This document shows positions 15,932 to 61,400 of a stretch of 64,000 nucleotides of DNA, one piece after another. Below the pieces are notes generated by a model. That model was not told the DNA's origin, did not search any database, and saw only the letters and a program-made list of their open reading frames with translations. Position 1 is the stretch's first letter. Each line of letters begins with the position of its first letter. The position numbers and the translations under genes are program-made. Origin of the DNA: Escherichia phage vB_EcoS_AKFV33. The stretch lies in sequence record NC_017969.1; one strand, given 5' to 3'.

Positions 15932-18262
15932 TTAAATAGTACAACCACCGGATGCACAACCGGCTGCTTCTTCTCCAGCACCTCCACCATTTGCGGTATT
16001 GAAGTTAGCGTAATACCAAGTTTTCCACCCATACTTAACAGCAGTCATGAAATCACGAACTACTACTGGGCCAGGAATGATTTCATTCTCAAACTTGGTG
16101 TAGTCATAGTACATATTCGTACTGATAGACTGACTGAAGAATTTCTGCATAGTTGCTACCCATTTGATCCACTCGATACGATCTACATCATAAGCCAGTT
16201 TATAGCTCATTAACGTTTCCCAATCGGTTGCACCTGGAGCAATTGCAATTACTTTATTTACTGCACTACCTTTAATAGATACAATCTTACGAGGCGGTTC
16301 GATAGAGTTAGTAACTCCTAGCAGAACAGAAGAACTTTCTCCTGGCATCTGAGCAGTCAGAACAGAGTTACGCATACCATATTTCAGAATATCTGCACGC
16401 AGAGACTCCCAATCCATTTCTAGACCTACGGATACCAGTTCATCAACAGTTTTCTTGTACGTGTCGATTACCAGAATTCCTTTAGATGGTTTAGTGCGAT
16501 CAAACCACTCGCATGCACCCTGTTCTTTAGCTAGGCGTACAGAGGCTTTATGCAGGAAGTAAGACAGTTTTTCAGCCTCACGGTGAATCCAGTTACGGGC
16601 TTCAATACCTTCATAAGCCAGACCTTCTGCTGCCATTGCACCTGCTGCGTTCATTAGTCCAATACCAACATTACGACGTTTCTTAGCCGTATATTCCATA
16701 GTTGGGAACGGATAATCCTGAATTTCAATAATTGTATCAACGAATTTCAGAAGGATGTAGCAAGTTTTTTCCCACTCAGCCAGAGATTCCATGCGCCCAA
16801 GTACAACACCACCTAAGTTACACAGAGATACTTCACCAATATCCTCCGGCTTCATTTGATCAAGCTGCTCTTTTGTCTTATACAGCTCTGTGATATGATG
16901 GAACGGGCGTGTAGGCTGAGTAATTTCAACACAAAGGTTTGTCATACGGATCGGATCAAGGAAGTTACCGTGACGATTAGATTCCCCGATGTGATGAGCA
17001 TACATACGTCCTGTTTCCATTCGGATACGTAGCCAAGTATCTAGGATTTCTTTTGCAGAGACTTTAGGAGCTGCAGGAACTGTTTTTCCTTCGTGGTCGA
17101 TCTTTGTAAGAGATGCCACACGTTTCTCCGCTGCCACGTAGATTTCTTCAAATTTAGCCTCGTCATCACTATAAAACGCTTCATGAACTTCTGGAGCATA
17201 GAAGTATGACATTAGCGTAATATCTTCGTTTTTAAGATAACGTTTTAACAAAAGATTGTTAAAGCTCAGAGAATAATCCATCTTATCGATTTTATTCTCA
17301 TCTGTAGCACGTTGTTGCTTAACCTGCATCAATTGAATGATTTCAGGGTCGAAGTATGGATAAGACACTGTAGCAGAACCACCACGAGTTTGCTGAGTAT
17401 TGGCCTTTACTGAGCGGTCAATGTGTCGATAATATGGTAGTTTTCCGGAATGCGGGAATGCCCCATTTCGCACCGGATCAGCAATTGATCGGCTTTCAAG
17501 ATGATACCCGATTCCCGCTCTGGCTGCGACCATTTTGAAGACGATGTGCTCGGCGGTGTCGATTGAATCCAACGTGTCAGTGGAATCCACGAGGCAGCAA
17601 CTAGCAAATCCACGGTCACTAGAGCGCAGACCAACCAGTGGCGGCGTAGGAACGTTGATTTTGTGGAGTGACATTGCGTTGTAGAGGTCGATTGCATCTA
17701 GAATTGTCCAGTTAGGTTGAGATAACATCGCCATTGCCATACCCATGTAGGCAAACTGCGGAGTTTCATAAATTTCACCAGTGGCTATGTTACGACGGGA
17801 ATACTTATCAAAGAACTGCTTCAGTCCACCACTAGTAAAAAGACGGTCACGATCATGGTCGATAACCTGATTCAGAGCTTCAAATTGCTCATCGGTAATC
17901 CATGCACTCATGTCTTCCCATGCACCTACGCTAACCATGTGGTCATGGAAGAAGCGCAGAGAAGGCGGTTCGAAGGAATCATAAAGGCGTTTACGCATTT
18001 GCGCAAGACGTAATTCCTTTGCTGGCACATCATATGCTGGATTATCTTTAATAAGACTTTCAGCAGCTTTAATTAATGCATCCATCAGAGTGTCGGAATC
18101 TACAACCCCTTTAGGCAGAGTTTTTTGAGCAGCCATAGTAATGGCTGACCAACTTACATCAACTGTTTTGCAACCATACTCTGCCCAACCATTTAGTTTT
18201 TCAGGAGCAAAGTCTTCTACAGTACCGTCACGTTTAATTACTTTTTCAATGCGATGGCTCAT
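15932..18262 (-). CDS. nrdA: ribonucleotide reductase class Ia alpha subunit
   Basis: ATP-cone start MSHRIEKVIKRDGTVEDF, C-terminal Cys pair CASGGC; start moved to ATG with AAGGAAAG RBS. Confidence 0.9.
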   Translation of the reverse strand: MSHRIEKVIKRDGTVEDFAPEKLNGWAEYGCKTVDVSWSAITMAAQKTLPKGVVDSDTLMDALIKAAESLIKDNPAYDVPAKELRLAQMRKRLYDSFEPPSLRFFHDHMVSVGAWEDMSAWITDEQFEALNQVIDHDRDRLFTSGGLKQFFDKYSRRNIATGEIYETPQFAYMGMAMAMLSQPNWTILDAIDLYNAMSLHKINVPTPPLVGLRSSDRGFASCCLVDSTDTLDSIDTAEHIVFKMVAARAGIGYHLESRSIADPVRNGAFPHSGKLPYYRHIDRSVKANTQQTRGGSATVSYPYFDPEIIQLMQVKQQRATDENKIDKMDYSLSFNNLLLKRYLKNEDITLMSYFYAPEVHEAFYSDDEAKFEEIYVAAEKRVASLTKIDHEGKTVPAAPKVSAKEILDTWLRIRMETGRMYAHHIGESNRHGNFLDPIRMTNLCVEITQPTRPFHHITELYKTKEQLDQMKPEDIGEVSLCNLGGVVLGRMESLAEWEKTCYILLKFVDTIIEIQDYPFPTMEYTAKKRRNVGIGLMNAAGAMAAEGLAYEGIEARNWIHREAEKLSYFLHKASVRLAKEQGACEWFDRTKPSKGILVIDTYKKTVDELVSVGLEMDWESLRADILKYGMRNSVLTAQMPGESSSVLLGVTNSIEPPRKIVSIKGSAVNKVIAIAPGATDWETLMSYKLAYDVDRIEWIKWVATMQKFFSQSISTNMYYDYTKFENEIIPGPVVVRDFMTAVKYGWKTWYYANFNTANGGGAGEEAAGCASGGCTI

Positions 18263-18300
18263 TTGGCTTTCCTTTTTATAGTTATCAGGATTTAAGGAAT

Positions 18301-18329
18301 ATTCTACTTTATTATCGGTCATTAGGCAA
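18301..18329 (-). promoter_or_regulatory. promoter (TTGCCT-17-TAGAAT) upstream of nrdA
   Basis: motif follows hairpin terminator. Confidence 0.45.
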
Positions 18330-18342
18330 ATAAAATTTTCTG

Positions 18343-18376
18343 ATAGAAAAGGCCCGAGTATTTTCATACCCAGGCC
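18343..18376 (-). terminator. rho-independent terminator ending the phoH unit
   Basis: GGCCTGGGTAT-GAAA-ATACTCGGGCC hairpin then TTTTCT on minus strand. Confidence 0.5.
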
Positions 18377-18404
18377 CTGTATATTACCAGTCTAGCTTTT
18401 TAGC

Positions 18405-18626
18405 TTATTCAATTACTTTAGCTCTAGCTACTTCTTTTAATAGAATATCTATGGAGGTGCTCAGCTCGTTATAATTGAATGGTTTATTTGGATTTGAGGT
18501 TACAATTTTCCACGCTAGGGTTGTCTTAGGACTTTCTTCCCCTTCCTTACGTGTAATCATATTAGCAGCACTCAGTGAAGTACGATGTATTTTAGTTTTA
18601 CGGCTCAGATGAACGACGTTTCCCAT
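18405..18626 (-). CDS. hypothetical protein (~73 aa)
   Basis: MGNVVHL...; ATG 2 nt after phoH stop. Confidence 0.4.
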   Translation of the reverse strand: MGNVVHLSRKTKIHRTSLSAANMITRKEGEESPKTTLAWKIVTSNPNKPFNYNELSTSIDILLKEVARAKVIE

Positions 18627-18627
18627 A

Positions 18628-19389
18628 TTACACCTTCCCCATGTCTTTAAAGATGTCATAGAATGCTTTAGACTCAACAGAACGAACGTTATCAATCAAT
18701 TCGATCATTGAGAATGGGGCATTTTCGTATTTCTCATAGACTTCCATAAGGAGTGCTAGACCTGAGTCACCTTTAATGTCTTTCTGAGCTATATCTCCGC
18801 AGATAATTAAACGGCAGTCTTGTCCTACACGAGTTAGAAGACAAATCATTGCCTCAACGGAAATATTCTGAGCTTCATCGACAATTACATAGGAGTTGTT
18901 GAAAGTTCTGCCACGAGCATGTTCGACAGCCAAAAATTTAATTTTCTGACGTTCGACATATCCCTTATAGGCATGATCGCCGATGGCCCATTTCATACCA
19001 TCAGCTATTGGCTCCAACCAAGGCTCTAGCTTTTCTGCTAGATCACCAGGAAGCATACCAAGAGACTTACCTAGAGGTTCATTAGGACGTACGAGGATAA
19101 CTTGCTCAATATCTGAGTGAATGTCTACGAGTTCCTGAGCTGCAAGAACGGACGGAATAAAGGTTTTACCAGTACCTGGCTCACCGATACCCACAGTCAC
19201 TGTGTTGTTCTTGATCATATTGATATATGATTTTTGCTCGCGGTTTTTACCTACTAGGGATTTAGCAACTGGGTTAGCGTAATCATTAGAAAAATCAGCC
19301 TGAATTACGTTATTCTCATACTTGTTGCCACGCTTTCTTGAACCATTGCGGTTCTCTCTTTTTTGACGTGCTTTTCCCATAAATAACAC
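18628..19389 (-). CDS. phoH: PhoH-like ATPase
   Basis: Walker A GIGEPGTGKTF and PhoH-like core. Confidence 0.85.
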   Translation of the reverse strand: MLFMGKARQKRENRNGSRKRGNKYENNVIQADFSNDYANPVAKSLVGKNREQKSYINMIKNNTVTVGIGEPGTGKTFIPSVLAAQELVDIHSDIEQVILVRPNEPLGKSLGMLPGDLAEKLEPWLEPIADGMKWAIGDHAYKGYVERQKIKFLAVEHARGRTFNNSYVIVDEAQNISVEAMICLLTRVGQDCRLIICGDIAQKDIKGDSGLALLMEVYEKYENAPFSMIELIDNVRSVESKAFYDIFKDMGKV

Positions 19390-19453
19390 TCCTATAGTGT
19401 ACTTCGCTAACAGAGGATCAACAAAAAGATCTTGTTTATCAACTTACAAATAT

Positions 19454-19482
19454 ATTATACCAATATATACAGTAAAAAGCAA
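19454..19482 (-). promoter_or_regulatory. early promoter (TTGCTT-17-TATAAT) for the phoH-nrd leftward unit
   Basis: motif in divergent intergenic region. Confidence 0.5.
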
Positions 19483-19682
19483 CTACAATTTTAAATAAGC
19501 CTATGATATTGCATTTAAATAAAAAATTTGCTTGCTTTTAACGTGAGATGTGTGATACTAGATAATCATTTTATATCGCGTACACGAGTGCGTGATTATA
19601 CAATCTTTAATAGAAATTGGCAAATAAAATTTTTTCAAAAATTGATTAAAGTCAAGTTATTTAAGAATGCTAAAAAATTTTA

Positions 19683-19711
19683 TTGACATAGTGGTATTTT
19701 TATATTATACT
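19683..19711 (+). promoter_or_regulatory. strong sigma70 promoter (TTGACA-17-TATACT)
   Basis: consensus -35, 17-bp spacer, near-consensus -10, AGGAG RBS before ATG at 19735. Confidence 0.6.
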
Positions 19712-19734
19712 ATGTACTAAATAGGAGAAATAAA

Positions 19735-20403
19735 ATGCCAAAGAAATTGAGTACGGAAGAAGTCAATAATAGACTTTTAGATAGAGGAATTGTCTTAGTT
19801 GGGGAGTATATAAATGCTAATACTAAGGCTAGTTTTAGATGTTCAGTGGGGCATGTATGGGAAACAAAACCATCAGTGTTACTTAACATGGGATTTGGAT
19901 GTCCATATTGCAGTGGGAAAGCTAAACTAACTCCTGAAGTAATAAACCAGGAATTAAGTAATAAAGGAATACAAATAGTAGGCAAATATGTAAATAATAG
20001 AACTCCGACCCTTTTTAGGTGTGAAAATGGCCATGAGTGGAATACTACTATTAATGCAGTGAAAAATTTAGACAGTAATTGCCCGATATGTAAAAAAGAA
20101 GGCAGGTCTAAAACAAAACTATATGTTATGTATAGTGAATCTTTAGGTACTAAGATTGGTATCTCTAATAAACCGGGAACTAGATTAGGAAAAATTAGCA
20201 GAAATGCTAATATACCAGATCTTAAATTATTTAAAGTATTTGATATCTTAGATTATACTAAGTGCCGTAAAATTGAGAAAGCAGCACATGAGCATTTTAA
20301 AGAATGGAACTGCTATTATAAGGATTTTGATGGTGCTACAGAGTTTTTTGATATTGAACCAGATACAGCAGTAAAATTTATTGAGGAAAATATTAATGAC
20401 TGA
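19735..20403 (+). CDS. GIY-YIG-like (T5orf172-type) protein with duplicated zinc-ribbon modules
   Basis: two repeats of F(R)C..GH.W...CP.C; C-terminal KLYVMYSE...GTKIGISN...R; strong promoter and RBS upstream. Confidence 0.55.
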   Translation: MPKKLSTEEVNNRLLDRGIVLVGEYINANTKASFRCSVGHVWETKPSVLLNMGFGCPYCSGKAKLTPEVINQELSNKGIQIVGKYVNNRTPTLFRCENGHEWNTTINAVKNLDSNCPICKKEGRSKTKLYVMYSESLGTKIGISNKPGTRLGKISRNANIPDLKLFKVFDILDYTKCRKIEKAAHEHFKEWNCYYKDFDGATEFFDIEPDTAVKFIEENIND

Positions 20404-22243
20404 AGCTGAATTATTCGATAATATCTATGGTATTACAGATGGCTTTGCAGACTCTACCCTAAAGCATAATAATGCTAATAAACCCTCTGAGCGTTTTCCT
20501 ACTCAGCGGGATATGATTGCAGGTGAACTAAGTAAATTTTTAACCTTGCAAGAAATGCCCGTACAGATCAGGACAGCACACTCAATCGGAGATATTCATT
20601 TCCATGACTTGGATTATTCCCTTTTGGGCATGACTAACTGTTGTCTAGTAGCTCTGGAAGATATGCTAAAAAATGGTATGAAGGTTGGTAATGCTGAAAT
20701 TAGCACTCCAAACTCTATCACTACTGCGGCGGCTATTACTGCTCAGATTATCACTCAGGTTAGCTCCCATCAGTATGGTGGTACTTCTGTAGATCGCCTT
20801 GATGAAGTATTAGCCCCTTATGTTCGTAAATCCTATGACAAAAATCATGCGTTTGCAAAACGTTGGACTAAGGATGAAGCCAAAGCATCAGTAATGGCTA
20901 CGGAGATGACTGAAAAAGAAGTCTATGACGCTTGTCAGGGTTTAGAATATGAAATCAATACCATGTTCAACTCTAATGGTCAGAGTCCATTTATTACCTT
21001 TGGTTTTGGTCTAGGAACTTCCTGGGAAGCACGTCTAGTACAGAAAGCAGTACTGAAAGTACGCATGGATGGTTTAGGTATCAATAAACGTACAGCTATC
21101 TTCCCGAAACTGGTATTTGTACTTCGCGATGGCGTAAATATGAAACCAGGAGATGTTAATTATGACATCAAGAAGTTAGCTATGAAATGTACTGCTGAAC
21201 GTATGTATCCAGATTATATCAGCTATGACAAGGTTGTAGAAGTTACTGGAGACTATAAAGTTTCTATGGGCTGCCGTTCATTCCTAGCTGCTGCAGAAGA
21301 TGGTGAAACTGCTGGCCGTAATAACTTAGGTGTTGTTTCTGTAAACTTGCCTAGAATTGCTATCGAAGCTGAAGGAAATATTGATCTATTCTTTGATTTG
21401 CTTGAGCTACGTGTGGATACAGCGTTAAAAGCATTGGAGTGGAGAGTTGATCGCTTAAAATACATCCAAGCTAAAGCTGCACCCATCCTCTATATGTCAG
21501 GAGCCTTTGGGTTACGCTTGGAGCCTGATGAATATGTATTCGATCATTTCTATAACCGTGCTTCTGTATCTCTAGGGTATATTGGTTGCCATGAAATGCT
21601 ACAGTTCATGTTCGGCAAAGATGTAGACACAATGTCAGAGACCTGCATCAAGTTTGTTCAGCGTGTATTGCAGTACATGCGAGATAGAGTCGATCAGAAG
21701 AAGGAAGAGACTAAGTTAGGTTATAGCCTGTATGCTACACCGTCAGAGTCCCTATGTGATAGGTTTTGCCGTTTAGACCGTGAATATTTCCCAGAGCATG
21801 AAGATATTCTGTCTAAAGGATACTACACTAACTCGCACCACCTTGATGTAGAGCGTAAAGTTGCTCCTAACGTGAAATTTGATTATGAATCTAACTTTAC
21901 GCCTATTGCTTCTGGTGGGTGCATTTCCTATGTAGAACTACCGGATATGAAACGATTCCCAGATGCACTGGAATGGGTTATTAATTATGCTGCTAGTAAG
22001 GTTCATTACTTCGGTATTAATACCCCAGTGGATTCTTGTGGTAAATGTGGATTCTTAGGTGAAACAATAGCATCCGAAGATGGATTCAAGTGCCCTATCT
22101 GTGGTAATCATGACCCCGAAACTCTTGAAGTAACTCGTCGAGTTTGTGGGTATCTTGGAAATCCAGGTGCTCGTCCGTTTAACCCAGGAAAACAACATGA
22201 GGTTATGGGCAGGGTGAAACATCAGGATATTCGAGCTAAGTAA
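20396..22243 (+). CDS. nrdD: anaerobic ribonucleoside-triphosphate reductase (class III)
   Basis: glycyl radical motif RVCGYLG and C-terminal zinc ribbon; ATG with GAGGAAAA RBS. Confidence 0.9.
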   Translation: MTEAELFDNIYGITDGFADSTLKHNNANKPSERFPTQRDMIAGELSKFLTLQEMPVQIRTAHSIGDIHFHDLDYSLLGMTNCCLVALEDMLKNGMKVGNAEISTPNSITTAAAITAQIITQVSSHQYGGTSVDRLDEVLAPYVRKSYDKNHAFAKRWTKDEAKASVMATEMTEKEVYDACQGLEYEINTMFNSNGQSPFITFGFGLGTSWEARLVQKAVLKVRMDGLGINKRTAIFPKLVFVLRDGVNMKPGDVNYDIKKLAMKCTAERMYPDYISYDKVVEVTGDYKVSMGCRSFLAAAEDGETAGRNNLGVVSVNLPRIAIEAEGNIDLFFDLLELRVDTALKALEWRVDRLKYIQAKAAPILYMSGAFGLRLEPDEYVFDHFYNRASVSLGYIGCHEMLQFMFGKDVDTMSETCIKFVQRVLQYMRDRVDQKKEETKLGYSLYATPSESLCDRFCRLDREYFPEHEDILSKGYYTNSHHLDVERKVAPNVKFDYESNFTPIASGGCISYVELPDMKRFPDALEWVINYAASKVHYFGINTPVDSCGKCGFLGETIASEDGFKCPICGNHDPETLEVTRRVCGYLGNPGARPFNPGKQHEVMGRVKHQDIRAK

Positions 22244-24725: not shown

Positions 24726-25154
24726 ATGTTCAATAATGTATTCTCTAAAGAAGCTAACCCAATTTTGGTTAACTTTTGGCGTACTCTCCCAGCTAGCCTG
24801 TATAATGAGGCTATTAACTCTTTGAAAATATGGTGTGAGAATAACGAAATCTCCTTTGCTTTTAAAGATGATATTGATGAGGCTCCCTGTATTGGTTTAA
24901 TTGTGCAGGTAGAGGAGGGTCTTGAAGAGATTGTGGGCTGGAAAGAGTTAGACGAAATGGGCTTAGTTTTTGCGTTAAATTATAAACTGTTTATGCCTGC
25001 TAAGCATCGCCTTGTTGTTAACTATAAAACTAGTGAATCTCCTGGTTTTCAGGTTAATGAACGTTATGGTTGGTCTTACTCACCGGAAGAAGTAAATGAG
25101 GGGATTCAGAAACTTCGACGTTTCGGGTATATGATCCCGGGTTTAACTGCTTAA
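24726..25154 (+). CDS. hypothetical protein (142 aa), paralog of next ORF
   Basis: shares PCIG...W.EL..M.L..ALN..LF.P...PGL with 25164-25556. Confidence 0.5.
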   Translation: MFNNVFSKEANPILVNFWRTLPASLYNEAINSLKIWCENNEISFAFKDDIDEAPCIGLIVQVEEGLEEIVGWKELDEMGLVFALNYKLFMPAKHRLVVNYKTSESPGFQVNERYGWSYSPEEVNEGIQKLRRFGYMIPGLTA

Positions 25155-25163
25155 GGAGGCAGG

Positions 25164-25556
25164 ATGGAACAAGTATATTGGCGTCAGATTGACCCTAGTT
25201 TGGTGAAACGTGCGGAGAAGCTGCTACAACGTTGGTTGGGGGTAAGGCAAGCCTCCTTCTCTTTTCCGGAGCAGCAAACGGATGATCCATGCATTGGCGT
25301 TTTCCTGTCTGGATATGCCGGGGAATGGGAGATGGATTGGAATGAATTGTCCGCTATGAGTTTAATTGTTGCCCTAAATTTCTCTTTGTTCCATCCACGT
25401 GGTTTGGCCATATGTCGTGTGCCTGATGACGGTTGTTCGCCCCATCTTTTACAGGTGGAAGATGATATTTGGGAGTACACTCCAGATATTCTCAAAGAAG
25501 CTAAAGAACAATTAAACCGTGTTGGGATTTATGTTCCAGGCCTAAATGATGAATGA
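25164..25556 (+). CDS. hypothetical protein (130 aa), paralog of previous ORF
   Basis: as above. Confidence 0.5.
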   Translation: MEQVYWRQIDPSLVKRAEKLLQRWLGVRQASFSFPEQQTDDPCIGVFLSGYAGEWEMDWNELSAMSLIVALNFSLFHPRGLAICRVPDDGCSPHLLQVEDDIWEYTPDILKEAKEQLNRVGIYVPGLNDE

Positions 25557-25647
25557 TTTTTATTAGCTGAAATTTGTAATCCGGGCTATTAGTGCTCGGA
25601 TTATTACATAATCTTTCCAGTCGATTGACAGTCAAAATAAATTGTCG

Positions 25648-25678
25648 TTGACAATTTGGATGGATTATGTAATAATAT
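25648..25678 (+). promoter_or_regulatory. promoter with duplicated TTGACA boxes upstream of second HNH gene
   Basis: TTGACA at 25625 and 25648, TAATAA/TAATAT -10 candidates. Confidence 0.4.
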
Positions 25679-25695
25679 ATGTATTGGAGGTGAGG

Positions 25696-26148
25696 ATGTC
25701 ATTCACACAGCAAGAACTTTTAGATAACTTCCGATATGAAGATGGTAAGTTATTTAGAACTACAGGAAGAAATGCAGGGAAAGAATGTTGTGTTTCTACG
25801 GGTAACGGATATTATCGTATATCTCTAGGGAATAGGACTATGCTTCGGCATAGAGCAATATTTTTAATGCATCATGGATACTTACCTGATTTAGTAGATC
25901 ATGTGAATACTATAAAAGGTGATGATCGTATTGAAAATCTTAGAGAGCAGACAGTGTCCGGTAATCTAAGAAATATCAAATATAAGAAAGGAATGCATGT
26001 TTACCCTTCTGGTAGTAAGAACTGGCAAGTAGTATTTACTATTAACCGTAAACGTATAGTTAAAGGAACATATGACAACTATGAGGTTGCATGTTCTATG
26101 GCCAAGATGTTTAGAGGTCAATTATACGGTAGGGAATCAATCCAGTAA
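25696..26148 (+). CDS. HNH homing endonuclease with AP2-type domain (second copy)
   Basis: HRAIFLMHHGYLPDLVDHVNTIKGDDRIENLREQT plus AP2-like C-terminus; start moved to ATG after GGAGGTGAGG RBS. Confidence 0.7.
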   Translation: MSFTQQELLDNFRYEDGKLFRTTGRNAGKECCVSTGNGYYRISLGNRTMLRHRAIFLMHHGYLPDLVDHVNTIKGDDRIENLREQTVSGNLRNIKYKKGMHVYPSGSKNWQVVFTINRKRIVKGTYDNYEVACSMAKMFRGQLYGRESIQ

Positions 26149-26156
26149 AATTTCAT

Positions 26157-26186
26157 TTGCAAGGGAGTATTATTTTATAGTATAAT
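26157..26186 (+). promoter_or_regulatory. early-type promoter (TTGCAA-18-TATAAT) reading into a 500-nt ORF-free region
   Basis: motif plus ATTCCCATAAATGAGAG leader. Confidence 0.45.
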
Positions 26187-26681
26187 ATTCCCATAAATGA
26201 GAGACATTAGTAAAAATTGATTTTGCTAATTTTTCTTGTTTACAATCCGCGATACGGAACAGTTAGGCTGCCCCATTAAGGGTTGTTTTAACTATTACTA
26301 GTGTTTATATTGCATTAGTTAATCTTCAATTAAGTGATCTGTGTACCCTGAATTCGGAAAGGTAAATCCAAACCGTGCATATTTAGCTCGTTATATAGGC
26401 AGAGCTTTATATGGGGGTGCGAACGAAAAGAGCAGCGAATGGCGGCACGTACAGTAGTCACCTACCAATAGGATAGTGAGGACAAATAGAATCGGCTTAG
26501 CGGCCAATGACCTAGGTTCTATTCTGTATATGAGCGAAGAGAGCACAGCACTGAGATATGATAACTTATTCATATTGTTTGATGATAATTGATGTTTACG
26601 TAAATAGTAGTAATAGTTGTTCTATTCTTTCTGAATAGTCCTAAAGAAAAGATTTCTATTAATCAACACAGGAGTATTGTT

Positions 26682-29471
26682 GTGTTTTCTATCCTCCAAG
26701 GTCACGCCGGGTTTTCTCGTGATTTAGCAACAGGTATTTGGCGAGAAATCAAAGCGGAAGATTATACCTTTGCCAAACGATTCTCGAAAGAGCATCCAGA
26801 AGGTAAACCAGCTTCTATGCCCTTCAAATTTGATGTAATAGAAGAGCACGACCCACAAAGCCTTGCCGAAATGTTACCACTTATGAGACGTTTAACGTCT
26901 GACCCTCATATCGTTGCGGTACGAGGTCGATGTCTTGCACCTAAAAATAATGTGCGACGTAAGAAAGGTAACTTTAATGTATCCAACCCTAGCAATATTA
27001 TTGCTATGGACGTGGATGGTATCCTAGATACCGGTGGGTATGACAAGTTTAATCTTGTAGGTATGGCTCGACATATTATTAGGATGTTAAATAGTATTAG
27101 TGAGGATATGTTTCCTCTTGATGCAGGGTTTATCGCTCATGCATCGTCTTCGGCTGGGCTAAAACCAGGTATCCGAATGCACTTAATACTAGAATCTAAT
27201 GTTAAGGTAACTCAGGGTCAAATCAAATTCTTATTTACATCTATCAACGAAAGTAGTAGACAAAAGTATGGCTTTGATATTGCCGACTTAGCTTATTACT
27301 CTTCCGTACAGCTCCATTATTTTGCAGATCCGTTATTTACCGATGGTATAGTAGATCCGTTTAAAGCGGAGAGTAAGCCACGTCTGGTATATGTTAAAGG
27401 TTCGAAGGTAAATTTGCCCAATAATCTGGTTGACTATGAAACAACTAGAGGGGAATTTAAGGAAGAGTTTTATTCTTTACTTGATCAAATTAAAGGCAAA
27501 AAGATTGCTTCTGATAAAGTAGAAGAAACCATCAGCGAATTGGAAGAAGCCGAGGATGGGGTGTACTTGCGTATTATCCCCAAACTCTACCATAGAGCAT
27601 TAGAGGATGGTGTTGATTTCGCATGGCTAGAACGTGAGATTAAACCCGCTTTATCTGAATATATTGCAACTAAAGATAACAGTCGTAATATTCAAGATTA
27701 CTTTAATAACGGTCGTAAGCAGGCTCTCAAAGCGTTTGTTAATAATTCTAAACGTGAGATCCCATTAAATCTGAAGGGTGTTCCACTCAAGAAATTAGAA
27801 GTGGATTCTCCACCAGAAGTTCCGTACCTGAAGATTAACATTGTGCCTCCAAAAGGCCATATAACATTTGTTAAGGCAAGTCTTGGTACTGGTAAGACTA
27901 CGGCAGTAACTAAATGGCTGGACGCAGGTGTTCTTCCTGGCAACTTTTTAGCAGTTACAAATACTAGAGCACTGGTATCTTCAAACGCTAAGAAATTTAG
28001 CGCAGGACAATATGATAAGTCTGTAGATATGCTCAACTTTAAACGTGGAGCTATTGATCGTATGTCTACAACTATCCACTCTTTGCATAAGTTCAAAAGT
28101 TTTATTGGTCAAATAGATACCATTTTTATTGATGAATGTGATGCTGTAATGAATGATCTATTATTCGCACCTGTTGTTAAGCAACGTCGCGAATGTATTC
28201 AAGTTCTACGTGACATCCTCATGACAGCTAAAACTGTAATTCTATCTGATGGGGATATTAGTGCAGAAACAATTGAAGCATATGGTTCTCTAATTGATTT
28301 TGATAAACCAGTAGCATTTTATAATCATCACCGTAAGATGCTGTCAAAAGCTCATGCTTATGAGTTCCCGGATGAATCCAGTATTTGGGTTGCACTTCAG
28401 ACCTCTCTAGAGATGGGTGAGAAATCTATCCTAGTATCTGATTGTGGGCCGGATGAACTGAATGAGAAGGGCATGGCGTTGCGTCGTAATACGGGTGCGT
28501 TAGTTAAGGAAATCCACTCAAACTCTACGTCTGATGTAGATATTCGACGTATTCTGGATTACACAACTAATGAGCTAATTGACCAACAAATTGATTGCTT
28601 ATTATGTAGTCCATCCGTAACTAGTGGTGTTGACTTCAACTATTTTGATAACGTATTCGTTATTACTAGAACCAGCAACCAAGCGCCAAACATGCGTTTC
28701 CAAGCAATCAGGCGCGACCGTGGTGCTCAGAACATTTATTATTTTATTGATAAATCTACGAGTGGATTCTCCGCAGGTTCTGAACAATATAATATTGATG
28801 AGGGTTGGCTGGAGTTAGCACAGCAATTATACGCACGTCGTAGGGAGCTGGAATCTAGGAATTATACTAGTACCTTACGTTATTACTTGCTTGATCAGGG
28901 TGCAACTATTGATATTTTCAGTGAAAGCTGGGGAACTATCGAAGGTGCAGGCAAAGAGTATACAGAAGAGCGAATCAAAGCCATTTTGTATTCAACTCCT
29001 GATTATTGCGCTCCACGTCATGCGGATGCGTATGAAGCTAAACTACTTCTTGTTCGCTACTATCATCTTGAGTCTATTAAAGATGTAACAGTTGAGCATG
29101 TTGAACAATATATCAAGGATAAACCTAATGATCGGGCTGCATTCTTCCATAAAATGCACGAGATGTTCTGGGAAGATATTAAGAAGTGTTCAAATGTCAC
29201 TATCAAACCATTCATAGAAGCTCTGAAAGGTAAGAAGAAAGATTTCTTCCTTAAAACAGGTCAGAGTGCTAACCCAAAATATGCCAGAATGTATCTTGGT
29301 ATGATGGGTATTGGTAAAGATATGAACACGGAGAATATTGTAGACTGGTACAGAACTTATTGTAAAATCGAGTGTATGCCAATCCCATATAAGTTTATGA
29401 CTGATGAGGAGAAACATATGCATGATGAAGCAATGGCAGAGCTAGGTGCTAGAAATGACAGTGAAGAATAA
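26682..29471 (+). CDS. large P-loop NTPase, putative helicase / replication-initiation protein
   Basis: Walker A ASLGTGKTT, DExD-like IFIDECD, TSGVDF; GTG start 7 nt after GGAG. Confidence 0.65.
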   Translation: MFSILQGHAGFSRDLATGIWREIKAEDYTFAKRFSKEHPEGKPASMPFKFDVIEEHDPQSLAEMLPLMRRLTSDPHIVAVRGRCLAPKNNVRRKKGNFNVSNPSNIIAMDVDGILDTGGYDKFNLVGMARHIIRMLNSISEDMFPLDAGFIAHASSSAGLKPGIRMHLILESNVKVTQGQIKFLFTSINESSRQKYGFDIADLAYYSSVQLHYFADPLFTDGIVDPFKAESKPRLVYVKGSKVNLPNNLVDYETTRGEFKEEFYSLLDQIKGKKIASDKVEETISELEEAEDGVYLRIIPKLYHRALEDGVDFAWLEREIKPALSEYIATKDNSRNIQDYFNNGRKQALKAFVNNSKREIPLNLKGVPLKKLEVDSPPEVPYLKINIVPPKGHITFVKASLGTGKTTAVTKWLDAGVLPGNFLAVTNTRALVSSNAKKFSAGQYDKSVDMLNFKRGAIDRMSTTIHSLHKFKSFIGQIDTIFIDECDAVMNDLLFAPVVKQRRECIQVLRDILMTAKTVILSDGDISAETIEAYGSLIDFDKPVAFYNHHRKMLSKAHAYEFPDESSIWVALQTSLEMGEKSILVSDCGPDELNEKGMALRRNTGALVKEIHSNSTSDVDIRRILDYTTNELIDQQIDCLLCSPSVTSGVDFNYFDNVFVITRTSNQAPNMRFQAIRRDRGAQNIYYFIDKSTSGFSAGSEQYNIDEGWLELAQQLYARRRELESRNYTSTLRYYLLDQGATIDIFSESWGTIEGAGKEYTEERIKAILYSTPDYCAPRHADAYEAKLLLVRYYHLESIKDVTVEHVEQYIKDKPNDRAAFFHKMHEMFWEDIKKCSNVTIKPFIEALKGKKKDFFLKTGQSANPKYARMYLGMMGIGKDMNTENIVDWYRTYCKIECMPIPYKFMTDEEKHMHDEAMAELGARNDSEE

Positions 29472-58484: not shown

Positions 58485-61400
58485 TTAAGAATTTCCTAAT
58501 GTTTTCAGACTAGCACCGTTCTCATTCAGAGCTAATTCTACTGCGTCTCTCAGAGCACCACTATTACTAGAGGCAAACTCTCTAAAACTTGCAGCATCCA
58601 TAGCACTAATATTCAGGATGATAGGTCTTCCTGAAGTTGAGTTAGACGAGGTTTTTAGCTCATCATTAGGTGTAGCTTTCATAGGAACCATAGGGGTAAC
58701 TACTTCTGTACCATGCTCACCCATTTGATAGCTAACCCCTGGATACATATTACCCCCCTCAGCACGAGGAACGAAAGAGTTGGCACTACCTATACCTTGA
58801 TCGCCACGAATATAAGATAGTTCACCTGCATTAGCAGACATGGACACATCTATATTCTTCTGACGCTCTCCTAAGGTTAAGTAACTAGTTGTATCCGCCC
58901 CAGAATCCGCAATACTTGACATACTAGATGCAGAGGATGCCTGAGCAAGAGCTAATGCACCTGCCAAACCTGCCGCTACCATCAGAGGGATAGAGAACGG
59001 GTATGGTACAGCTGTTGCTGCCTGCATAACTGCTACTGCAGTTTGGATGATAATCTGCTTCTTAGCTGCATCTTGTTGAATCTTCAGCTTTTCAGCTTCC
59101 AACTTCTTCAACTTAGCTTTAGATGCTTCTGATTTACCATCTCGTTTCTGCTCTGCTGCAATAGCCTGATCAATCGCACTAACCTGTTGACTAGTACTAT
59201 ATTGAATCATAGAGGCTACAGTCTGCATACCTGCTGCGATCGTGGAAGTAGTGTCTAAAGACCCCATAGAGAACTGAATCATAGCATTGGTTAAATTACC
59301 CATGCTTTGAGCTACAGCAGTTGCTTCGGAATTTAACTCAGATAGTTTAGAAATTGCCTGATCATAAGAAGCCATTCTATTTCCCATATCAGCAAAATCT
59401 TTATCTTCTCCAGATAGTCCAGTTGTAGGAGTATACACAGCACCTAAAGAAGATCCAACAGAAGCTTGCATCTCCGCATTTCTCTGTGCCCTTAAACCTG
59501 CTAGTTGTGCCCTAGTTTCAGCTATCTTTTTATTATACTCCGCTTGTGCCGCAGCATTACCTAATGTTTTCTGCTTTAAGTCTTCATATAATTTTAGCTG
59601 TTCCTGTAAGCGCTCCGCATTTCCCATTAGTGGTTTAGCAGTAAATTGTCTTTGCTGTTCTTCCTCTCTACCAGCAGCCATTGAAGCAATCTGATCTTGG
59701 CGGAATTTCCAGATTTCACGTTCAATTTGGGCTTGAGCACGTCTAGACTGTTCAGCCTCTTTCTGTTTATCAGCTTGTTTTGTATACCATTCGTACTTCT
59801 CCTTTTCAATGGTCAATTCAAGATTTAACTGTGCTAGACGATACTGAGTATCTGTCATAGTACGGTTATTTAAGAGAGCTATCTCACGATCTACACCCAG
59901 GATTTTATCTGTATAATCCTTAACCTTCTTCTGAGCCTCCATACCCTGATTAGTAAGTTTAAGTTTCTCCAGCTGAATTTTTTCAATTTCTTTCTCAACA
60001 GCTTTATTTCCCTGATTAGTTTGAAGTACACGGCGTAAAGCAGCTTCTTGCTCTTCTAACTGTTGGAGTTCTAAACGCCTACCAGCTTCCTGTGCTTTTT
60101 CTTTATCTTTAGTTTGGTTGTATACATCAGCTATCTTCTGTTGAACTGCTAACTGGTTCTTAGTCTCATTACCAGTTAGTTTAACGTACTCAGATAAGGC
60201 CTGAGACGCAGTTTTCATTTCAGACAGAGTATTATAGCCTAGGTTAAGATTTTTAACGTATTCATCAGCACTCTTACCAGTACCTAGAGATAGAGATTCT
60301 ATGTTTTTTATAGCATCTGCTAAAGTAGCACTAGTTTTAGCAGCAGTATCTGTATTCTGAGCAACGTTCTGTATATCATTAGCTAAGTCACTAGCAGTTT
60401 TCTTAGTCTGATTGTATGCTTTCTGCTGCTCAGTTAGTCCTTTTAATACAGTAGAGTTAAAATCATATACAGCACCAGGATCAGTAGTATCTCTCTGTAG
60501 ATTAATTTGCTTCTGAAACTCTGGACTAGCCTTTGCAGCAGCAGCCCCGGCAGCTTGATACGCTGATTTCCAAGCATTGAGGTTCTCTGTAGAATCCTCT
60601 ACTTCTTTACCAAGTCTAGTTACTTGTAAACCCATAGCTGCAGTTTCTGCTACAAATTGCTTATTGGCCTCCGAAGCACCTGCTGCTGCAAGACCAACAG
60701 GAATACCTTCACCAACTTGACGTATAGCTAGTTTTGTATAGAAATCTGCTTGTTCCATTCGTTTATCGAACTCAGATTTTAGCTTATTACGCTTATCAAG
60801 AGATTCCTTATACATATCTAGAGCTTTATTATAGCCTTCTTCAGAAGCAGCTAAACTTAAAGCAACAGCACCAACGTTGGTAGGGTCTATCTGTCTATTA
60901 GTTTTTTCTTGGGCCCTAGCTGCCTCAGCAGATATAGAAGCCTGAGATGTATAAAATACTGTGTTGATAGCATCAATTACTGGCCCTAAATACTTAGCAG
61001 CAGCTTGTTGTATTTTTCTTAGTGCAGCATCTGCATTAGCAGCAAATTGCTCCCATGGAGTTGCACGTAGTACTTCATCTAGGTAGCCAAACCGCTTAGT
61101 AGATTCAGCAATTACCGCGTTAGCGTATGCTTGTTGTTTCTGGAAAGTGGTAAGACTATTAACATTATATGTTATACCTGTGTTTGCAGCATTTAACTGT
61201 TTAACATAATCAGCGTATGCGTCATTAAGACGGATGGTGACACCAAGTTCATCCAGAAGTTCGATTTCTTGTTTAGATACGCCCTTAATTACACGGTTAA
61301 GTGCATCAGTCATATCAACGCCAAGAACAGCAGCCGCACGACGAGCTACTAAACCAAATTTATTAAGTTGTTCAGCATCAAATCCATAAGCAGATGCTGA

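Follow-up and report, generated by a model that had tools for sequence, protein, structure and literature searches.

The 533-nucleotide (nt) gap at positions 26149-26681 of a 64,000-nt stretch of Escherichia phage vB_EcoS_AKFV33 (NC_017969.1; the whole stretch is called the window below, and all positions refer to it unless another locus is named) lies between the stop codon of an HNH homing endonuclease gene, at 26148, and the GTG start, at 26682, of a gene for a helicase of 929 amino acids (aa). The gap is very probably the template for a large, highly structured functional RNA. The fold is predicted, with equally high confidence, to occupy the first 430-450 nt of the transcript, up to about 26640. 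The source phage is T5-like; Escherichia phage H8 is 99.4% identical to it over this region, and the gap matches 442 phage records, mainly of Salmonella and Escherichia Tequintavirus and Epseptimavirus. The downstream gene (26682-29471, plus strand) encodes a UL9-like superfamily 2 (SF2) helicase (Pfam Herpes_ori_bp, E = 1.3e-7; PHROG 3712), named "replication origin binding protein" in the records of relatives, which, as judged from its sequence, is the counterpart of the D2 protein of phage T5. T5 D2 is a bipolar helicase with a Walker A motif at residues 399-406 and has been proposed as the replication initiator (Wong et al., 2013; PMC3632103).

Evidence for the RNA and its architecture

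The RNA would start from a sigma-70 promoter on the plus strand (26157-26186), which matches the consensus at 10 of 12 positions scanned and consists of a -35 element TTGCAA (26157-26162), an 18-nt spacer and a -10 element TATAAT (26181-26186). We infer from it a transcription start near 26193. The stretch has no excess of promoter-like sites (7 against an expected 5.9), and the promoter is credible because it is conserved, not because of its score: TTGCA-N17/18-TATAAT, often with an extended -10 element, lies 480-620 nt before the D2 start in all enterobacterial lineages examined. The homologous gap of T5 (58928-59544) carries in RefSeq a terminator at 58952-58976 and a promoter at 58999-59073. 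The early-type promoter that a preliminary description of this DNA had placed at 26157-26186 is thus near-consensus, conserved across lineages and annotated in T5 at the homologous site.

The longest open reading frames (ORFs) in the gap encode 60 and 43 aa on the antisense strand and 38 aa on the sense strand. None is conserved in position or frame across lineages, nor even between genomes that are 92% identical, and two 38-aa sense ORFs of this phage are missing from such relatives. With nothing longer than 60 aa and no ORF conserved, the earlier statement that the region is free of ORFs holds, and the check for a conserved protein-coding gene at this place in related phages found none.

Folding of the plus strand of 26189-26640 gives a minimum free energy (MFE) of -125.2 kcal/mol with z = -4.49 (none of 100 shuffles was as good), compared with z = -1.12 for the minus strand. 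An RNA with G-U pairs should show such an asymmetry between strands; signals in duplex DNA should not.

The comparative evidence comes from two kinds of alignment. Automatic alignment by MAFFT followed by RNAalifold across all lineages gave a poor consensus, as two alleles of the element, A and B, cannot be aligned with each other, and it was replaced by anchor-based curation. The curated alignment comprises 13 sequences from about nine lineages, assembled helix by helix from the listed strands and anchored on conserved islands; with the linkers masked as N it passed through MAFFT unchanged (214 columns, no gaps introduced). It holds 66 pairs in 11 helices, in which 98.1% of cells are canonical, against 73.1 +/- 1.1% in shuffles (0 of 500 as high) and 39-51% with slid partners; 52 of the 66 pairs are compensated on both sides (shuffle mean 30, with none of 500 reaching this number, and 11-14 with slid partners), and the covariation score is 0.637 against 0.06-0.09 with slid partners, but the alignment was hand-fitted to the proposed helices and the pair counts are inflated. 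For this reason, independent support was sought in alignments within each type. For type A (14 sequences, nearly free of indels in MAFFT), RNAalifold predicts the same helices with 12 compensated pairs; for type B (15 sequences, indel-free in MAFFT), it gives the same architecture with 6 compensated pairs.

Among the options raised in the preliminary description, a structured leader or a non-coding RNA is therefore strongly supported by the 5' promoter, the lack of a conserved ORF, the strand-specific stability and the covariation, and the folding with comparative alignment that it had suggested yields compensatory pairs both across lineages and within types. The features generic to large structured non-coding RNAs (non-coding sequence, own promoter, compensated helices, strand specificity) are all found here; transcription in vivo and the ends of the RNA are presumed from the sequence.

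The predicted architecture, with all elements on the plus strand, begins with H1 (26194-26242), a 5'-terminal clamp hairpin present in the MFE structure of 9 of 9 lineages. Its inner stem pairs UUAGUAAAA (26207-26215) with UUUUGCUAA (26221-26229), and all nine inner pairs are compensated; the outer stem is of GAGAGA/UUUUC type with an ambiguous register. The CR1 hairpin follows (26243-26285), with a nearly invariant 21-nt loop, ACGGAACAGUUAGGCUGCCCC (26254-26274), that is unique in the window and invariant in types A and B, in phage DU_PP_V and in My1-like phages. It is closed by P1 (26251-26253 with 26275-26277) plus CAAUCC/GGGUUG. The closing helix covaries in the Klebsiella lineage (GAGCAU/AUGCUU versus GAGUAU/AUACUU) and in locus L059 (L numbers denote loci), while P1 itself has a low pairing probability and is tentative.

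The core of the RNA is closed by P2, a long-range helix between AACUAUUAC (26290-26298) and GUAAUAGUU (26610-26618), which spans 320 nt. It is supported by an inverted repeat (reported by the repeat finder as 26290-26307 with 26601-26618), covariation, folding and the within-type alignments; 6 of its 9 pairs are compensated, and it is predicted unconstrained in 8 of 9 lineages with a pairing probability of 0.89-0.99. From P2 an irregular rod runs on to about 26337, with its partner region beginning at about 26577. H6 (26556-26575; AUAUGA-UAACUUAU-UCAUAU) branches from this rod; 5 of its 6 pairs are compensated, it is 100% paired, and within type A its strands change from AUAUGA/UCAUAU to GUAUGG/CCAUAC.

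At the entry of the multi-helix junction, the 5' strand of P4 (CUGUG, 26339-26343) is directly followed by that of P3 (UACCC, 26344-26348); the corresponding 3' strands, identified by covariation in the curated alignment, are CACAG (26544-26548) for P4 and GGGUG (26415-26419) for P3. P4 is 100% paired with 4 of 6 pairs compensated, P3 has 3 of 6 compensated, and each type taken alone, A or B, likewise shows compensation in both helices. Inside the P3 domain lies the H3b hairpin (26384-26407; UAGCUC...GAGCUU), found in the MFE structure of 9 of 9 lineages and compensated at all six pairs. P5, a helix additional to the curated set (26449-26529), pairs GUACAG (26449-26454) with CUGUAU (26524-26529), with a change from AU to CG in five type-A sequences; it encloses H5 and a small hairpin at 26457-26483, in which RNAalifold reports a change from UA to CG. 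In H5 (26487-26521), an outer stem UAGAA/UUCUA, compensated at 5 of 5 pairs, surrounds the mini-hairpin GGC-UUAGCG-GCC (26494-26505), whose stem becomes GAC/GUC in L044. Every lineage conserves the motif GCUUAGCGGC of H5, which L036/L043 and Proteus phage Stubb have as well. The core is immediately followed on its 3' side by H7 (26622-26638; CUAUUC-UUUCU-GAAUAG), with all six pairs compensated, which is not an intrinsic terminator because no U-run follows the hairpin. The remainder (26639-26684) consists of a spacer of about 30 nt, in which a local hairpin CAACA/UGUUG is possible, the Shine-Dalgarno sequence AGGAG (26670-26674) and the GTG start codon (26682-26684). A conceivable pairing between the loops of CR1 and H5 (GGCUGC/GCGGCC), or between the CR1 loop and the region after P2, was set aside: it is partly consistent, but at positions that are nearly invariant.

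Two further peculiarities concern the H5 loop and its motif. In DU_PP_V (L011, about 1813-1835) and in a My1-like phage (L044, about 1325-1345) it contains CCUCCUUA / CUCCUUA, which is identical to the 3' tail of 16S rRNA (the anti-Shine-Dalgarno sequence), and the type B counterpart has UCCUC; no consistent pairing of this loop with the ribosome-binding site of D2 was found. Type-B RNAs also have, besides the conserved motif of the H5 hexaloop, a second CUUAGCG copy beside the 5' strand of P4 (L008, about 785-800).

Alleles, distribution and relation to catalogued RNAs

Type A is carried by this phage, T5, L6jm and Shivani, with a 92% variant in Epseptimavirus, and type B by DT57C, 3sent1, IME178 and Spc35. 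Both have the same architecture and common invariant islands, e.g., GAUACGGAACAGUUAGGCUGCCCCAU and GGCUUAGCGGCC, despite the divergence of the core (26342-26581), which is 28-47% identical between the types (comparison with L023/L024), compared with 100% for the preceding 60 nt and 72-100% for D2. The core behaves as an exchangeable cassette bounded by P2. Between type A and the Epseptimavirus variant, the RNA core, at 85-98% identity, is better conserved than the adjacent D2 coding DNA, at 65-95%. Clusters of the D2 protein match the RNA alleles A, A' and B exactly; within D2, the N-terminal 390 aa are more divergent (88-91% identity) than the helicase part (97%); this co-segregation is suggestive of co-evolution. 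A fold kept among relatives despite almost no sequence identity, together with an early promoter, recalls the pRNA of the phi29 family. However, pRNA is 120-174 nt long, is encoded at the genome end and serves the packaging motor, and the T5 element has no structural similarity to it and no sign of multimerisation.

An insertion of about 97 nt stands right after H1 in DT57C (L010, 655-760) and also in L022, L030 and L038. It is flanked by a direct repeat of TTTTTCTT, holds a hairpin of its own, ATTTACGG...CCGTAAAT, and is found with both core alleles (B in DT57C, A in DT571/2); such an insertion could be an additional module of the RNA or a mobile element of miniature size.

A gap ahead of D2 is kept in the Pectobacterium phages DU_PP_V and My1-like (Mccorquodalevirinae; D2 74-75% identical), in Klebsiella phages (79%), in an unassigned lineage, L036/L043 (64%), and in Proteus phage Stubb (66%). 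A small covariance model of H5-H6 retrieves the lineages on which it was trained as well as L043/L036 (E = 0.004 and 0.1), but neither the Proteus nor the Vibrio phages, and is too weak to set the limits of the family. In Stubb, the region has the GCCUUAGCGGG motif, its own consensus promoter and z = -2.52; two consensus sigma-70 promoters (L085, 805-833 and 1535-1564) bracket about 700 nt of non-coding sequence. The Vibrio Demerecviridae keep a gap of 600-700 nt before D2, filled in the records by ORFs of 30-55 aa. No folding signal (z = +1.75) and no match to the covariance model was obtained for Vibrio phage D302, and homology of the Vibrio gaps is not claimed for these reasons. These gaps lie at 1005-1716 in L046, 1071-1935 in L047 and 986-1713 in L048, with others in L105 and L106; several Vibrio lineages have a GUGACUAACC motif in common, and D302 and D51 have GAGGAAAGU. 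In one metagenomic Demerecviridae-like lineage (L092, 1233-1600; L101, 130-580), the place holds a divergently oriented gene and an AT-rich spacer of 370 nt in which GAATTTTTGAAAG is repeated in tandem, an arrangement that looks more like a classical origin or promoter region.

The CR1 motif was searched for more widely. In 596 Gb of bacterial genomes it gave 83 matches, where about 139 are expected by chance, in unrelated taxa and none in enterobacteria. The 33 viral matches are 31 T5-like contigs and 2 chance matches in GC-rich coding DNA. Judging by these matches, the element is confined to T5-like phages.

The covariance-model search against Rfam 15 (4227 models), which had been proposed as a check, matched no catalogued family: applied to 1.8 kb, to the 504 nt alone with the laxest filters and to eight related loci, it returned only junk matches with E values of 0.5-10, far below gathering scores, and an Rfam scan of the whole window found only tRNAs. 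With no Rfam match and no description in the searchable literature, the element is an undescribed family of a kind, large covariation-supported phage RNAs without an assigned function, that is itself already known. Large-scale screens may contain the element anonymously; the main text of one of them (PMC10690425) does not mention T5-like phages.

Coupling to D2 and competing explanations

The RNA lies directly upstream of D2 in every lineage that bears the element, and in most lineages the interval between promoter and D2 is non-coding sequence alone. As there is neither a terminator nor a second promoter before D2, the RNA would in this phage be physically the 5' part of the D2 mRNA. The reading favoured here, though held with somewhat less than even confidence, is that the RNA is functionally coupled to the D2 initiator, as an operator or leader or as an RNA that marks the origin. 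It assumes that host sigma-70 RNA polymerase starts at about 26193 from the conserved early-type promoter and that the 5' part of the transcript folds into the H1 clamp, the CR1 loop hairpin and the P2-closed core with its rod, H6 and the multi-helix junction (P4, P3, H3b, P5, H5). The folded RNA would then be the cognate nucleic-acid partner of D2, acting at the head of the replication module. D2, probably via its fast-evolving N-terminal domain, would bind the folded leader, or an R-loop or displaced strand produced by transcription of the leader. Such binding, presumed as are its regulatory or priming outcomes, could meter D2 synthesis in the manner of an operator (cf. the autoregulation of T4 gp32 and gp43), mark an early start of replication, or both. 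The 5' hairpin and the compact fold may also shield the 490-nt untranslated stretch from RNase E and Rho. A more specific version, in which the fold is the specificity partner of D2, either an RNA-defined origin or a cofactor, and the A and B cores are replicon-specificity cassettes, is regarded as rather unlikely.

The closest precedents for an operator are the gene 32 leader pseudoknot and the gp43 operator of T4, which are also structured 5' leaders of mRNAs for replication proteins; recognition of the leader by the protein it encodes would fit the co-segregation of RNA alleles and D2. However, the T4 operators are tens of nucleotides long and overlap the ribosome-binding site, whereas the T5 fold is about 430 nt long, ends 45 nt before the Shine-Dalgarno sequence and has no conserved contact with it. 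Regulation as by a riboswitch or attenuator finds no footing in the region: there is no match to an aptamer family, no plus-strand terminator and no conserved partner for the translation-initiation region.

Several observations, in addition to the hand-fitting of the curated alignment, weigh against a coupling to D2 or against the structure on which it is built. The terminator scan of the plus strand found no expression platform, and no consistent long-range pairing connects the RNA with the ribosome-binding region or an anti-Shine-Dalgarno sequence. The co-segregation of alleles with D2 involves three clusters only and could be plain linkage. In Stubb, the first of the two promoters starts the RNA and the second lies 37 nt before the D2 start codon, which suggests that D2 is expressed there independently of the leader and that the RNA is a separable unit. 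The metagenomic lineage with the AT-rich spacer, whose D2 is 52% identical, does without such an RNA. P1, the H3a region and the segment 26420-26448, between helices, stand outside the resolved structure, and the literature searched holds no RNA-seq or end mapping of T5 over this locus.

A close rival, possible though on balance unlikely, is an autonomous, trans-acting large non-coding RNA, whose core would be excised from the D2 mRNA or made apart from it and work elsewhere, as a scaffold of a ribonucleoprotein, a self-assembling "ornate" RNA of the ROOL or GOLLD sort, a decoy that engages a host factor or a host defence, or a ribozyme; its place beside D2 would be inherited gene order. The self-contained core closed by P2 is in keeping with this, as are the conserved CR1 21-mer and the UUAGCG hexaloop, which are of the type used for tertiary or intermolecular contacts, and the swap of the whole core as a cassette between alleles A and B with boundaries precisely at P2. 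The separate promoters for the RNA and D2 in Stubb and the missing cis-regulatory platform point the same way. With about 430 nt and more than 11 helices, the RNA is also akin to the large orphan RNAs of phages and prophages (PMC12286853). ROOL and GOLLD, which occur on phages and prophages, and OLE, raiA and HEARO are likewise several hundred nucleotides long, with many covarying helices and strictly conserved loops. Unlike these RNAs, the T5 element is fused to the 5' end of an mRNA, does not stand beside tRNAs, is restricted to enterobacterial Demerecviridae and has no Rfam match to them or to any other known large family. The main difficulty of the trans-acting RNA is that neither a terminator nor a second promoter precedes D2, here and in all Markadamsvirinae examined, and a free RNA would therefore need processing, of which no evidence was found; nor is there a trans target or a second copy within the window.

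The place of the element next to a proposed initiator leads to a distinct sub-case, an origin RNA that, like RNA II of ColE1, would form a structured primer or an R-loop. The fold would promote a persistent RNA-DNA hybrid near its 3' end, from which D2 and the T5 polymerase would start early bidirectional replication. An RNA-mediated origin function is possible; this particular form of it is considered improbable. In favour of it, a strong, conserved promoter reads into a non-coding region that directly precedes the gene of the proposed initiator. In T5, the gap is at 58.9-59.5 kb of 121.75 kb, i.e., at the genome centre, and the early origins of T5 have reportedly been mapped at internal positions. 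The alleles co-segregate with the N-terminal domain of D2, as specificity pairs of origin and initiator do, and in the lineage that lacks the RNA, its place is filled by AT-rich spacer DNA that carries a tandem repeat. The RNA II of ColE1/pMB1 resembles the T5 element in being an untranslated RNA of about 500 nt with a strong sigma-70 promoter and a multi-stem fold, conserved despite a varying sequence, at the replication module. The T5 element differs from it in that the initiator helicase gene follows, in its far larger number of helices and in its closing long-range helix, and it has no G-run/C-run hybrid signal, no mapped origin and no antisense promoter of the RNA I type. No minus-strand site for such an antisense regulator lies inside 26190-26640; the nearest, at 26149-26121, is outside the RNA. 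Furthermore, T5 encodes its own primase, and the R-loop origins of phages T4 and T7 are generally known to need no folded RNA of 400 nt.

The DNA itself offers little that would be expected of an origin, a point that bears on the origin RNA and on the very improbable view that the gap is a duplex DNA origin or protein-binding array whose conservation reflects sites for D2 or a host protein. Such an origin of the iteron or DnaA type would have at least three repeated sites, an AT-rich unwinding element and DnaA boxes. A repeat search of the gap found two-copy repeats only and no iterons. The region has no AT-rich block, its GC content at 26300-26600 being 0.41-0.43 against 0.33 in the flanks, which bears out the GC-richer blocks noted earlier. 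DnaA boxes are not in excess, with one site at one mismatch in the region and 79 found in the window where 84 are expected. The minimum of the cumulative GC skew lies about 6 kb upstream (window positions of about 18000-22000), where the direction of genes and transcription switches, and so follows the transcription direction; a second turn of the skew is seen at about 48 kb of the window. The direct repeats of the preliminary description are present, but as just two exact copies of GTTCTATTCT (26516-26525 and 26619-26628). Each copy is one strand of a separate RNA hairpin (H5 and H7) and the repeat is missing from the type-B version of the element, so that these are not iterons. The suggestion of an origin-like element is thus not borne out at the DNA level. 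The gap does adjoin a gene annotated as an origin binding protein, and two conserved islands could be binding sites; a duplex model, however, predicts neither the pairing-preserving changes, G-U pairs among them, nor the plus-strand stability. The oriS/UL9 system of herpes simplex virus 1 (HSV-1) offers a likeness in that the neighbour of the T5 element is also a UL9-like SF2 helicase, and UL9 recognises a structured (hairpin) form of its origin. However, oriS is a short AT-rich duplex palindrome, and the T5 element is a strand-specific fold of 430 nt with G-U pairs and a promoter.

Two further explanations can be set aside. Unannotated small protein genes, suggested by the short hypothetical ORFs that several records annotate here and by the 38-aa sense and 60-aa antisense ORFs, are hardly credible when no ORF survives even between 92%-identical genomes and the substitutions are pairwise-compensatory rather than codon-periodic. 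The same negligible probability is given to a divergent RNase P-like ribozyme that would serve the many tRNA genes of the phage (11-13 in the window): two short motifs are reminiscent of conserved regions of E. coli M1 RNA, GGAACAGUUAGGCUGC of CR-I (GGAAAGUCCGGGCUCC) and CGGCUUAGCGGCC of CR-V (CGGCUUAUCGGUC), the corresponding place in Vibrio phage D302 is occupied by GAGAGGAAAGUC, and the size is similar to that of type A RNase P RNA, but none of the RNase P models of Rfam gives a match at E <= 10, even with the search restricted to 504 nt, the candidate pairings fail by eye in L044, L032 and L059, and both look-alike motifs lie in hairpin loops (the CR1 loop, 26254-26274, and the H5 mini-hairpin, 26494-26505), so that no P4-type helix within a P1-P3 frame, and hence no P4 pseudoknot topology, can form.

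Neighbouring features and significance

Upstream of the gap, the free-standing HNH homing endonuclease gene (25642-26148, plus strand; Pfam HNH_3) is an insertion missing from most relatives; where it is missing, the alignment with the relative begins only at position 33 of the gap. It lies exactly between the terminator of the upstream operon and the promoter of the RNA (window 25642-26186; locus L001, 3001-3260). The promoter has the version TTGCAAGGGAGTATTATTTTATAGTATAAT in genomes that bear the HNH gene and TTGCAGGATGCCCAAAATCTTGATATAAT in those that lack it; Shivani and SHSML-45 carry both versions, the promoter and the first 50 nt or so of the RNA being duplicated. The mobile HNH gene thus seems to bring a replacement promoter along. 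Just upstream of it stand two adjacent paralogous genes (24726-25154 and 25164-25556), both with DUF7415 (E = 5e-36 and 1e-30). Elsewhere in the window, two tRNA-like genes on the minus strand (4011-4085 and 6376-6447) score above the Rfam gathering threshold and are not listed by ARAGORN, which accounts for 13 versus 11 tRNA genes.

Phage T5 has served as a model for 70 years, and collections for phage therapy and biocontrol commonly hold relatives of it, yet hundreds of genome records leave this stretch of 0.5 kb blank or fill it with tiny, spurious ORFs. With a covariance model of the element, the annotation of more than 400 genomes would be corrected and the A and B cores would be flagged as a recombination marker. 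Large RNAs so rich in covariation are seldom found and as a rule point to important biochemistry, for example that of ribozymes, ribonucleoprotein scaffolds or replication primers. Most of the known orphan large RNAs belong to organisms that are hard to manipulate, whereas the T5-type RNA belongs to a lytic phage of E. coli and Salmonella with well-established genetics. Since this host phage is a tractable classic model and the RNA lies beside the proposed initiator, its function is directly testable. It is unusual for the RNA to be fused to the leader of a gene for a replication initiator and to exist as two alleles that diverge deeply in sequence yet have the same structure. The start of T5 replication is a long-open question, which the RNA may help to answer. 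If an RNA-defined origin proved true, it would be the fold of an RNA, and not repeats in duplex DNA, that tells the initiator where and when to start.

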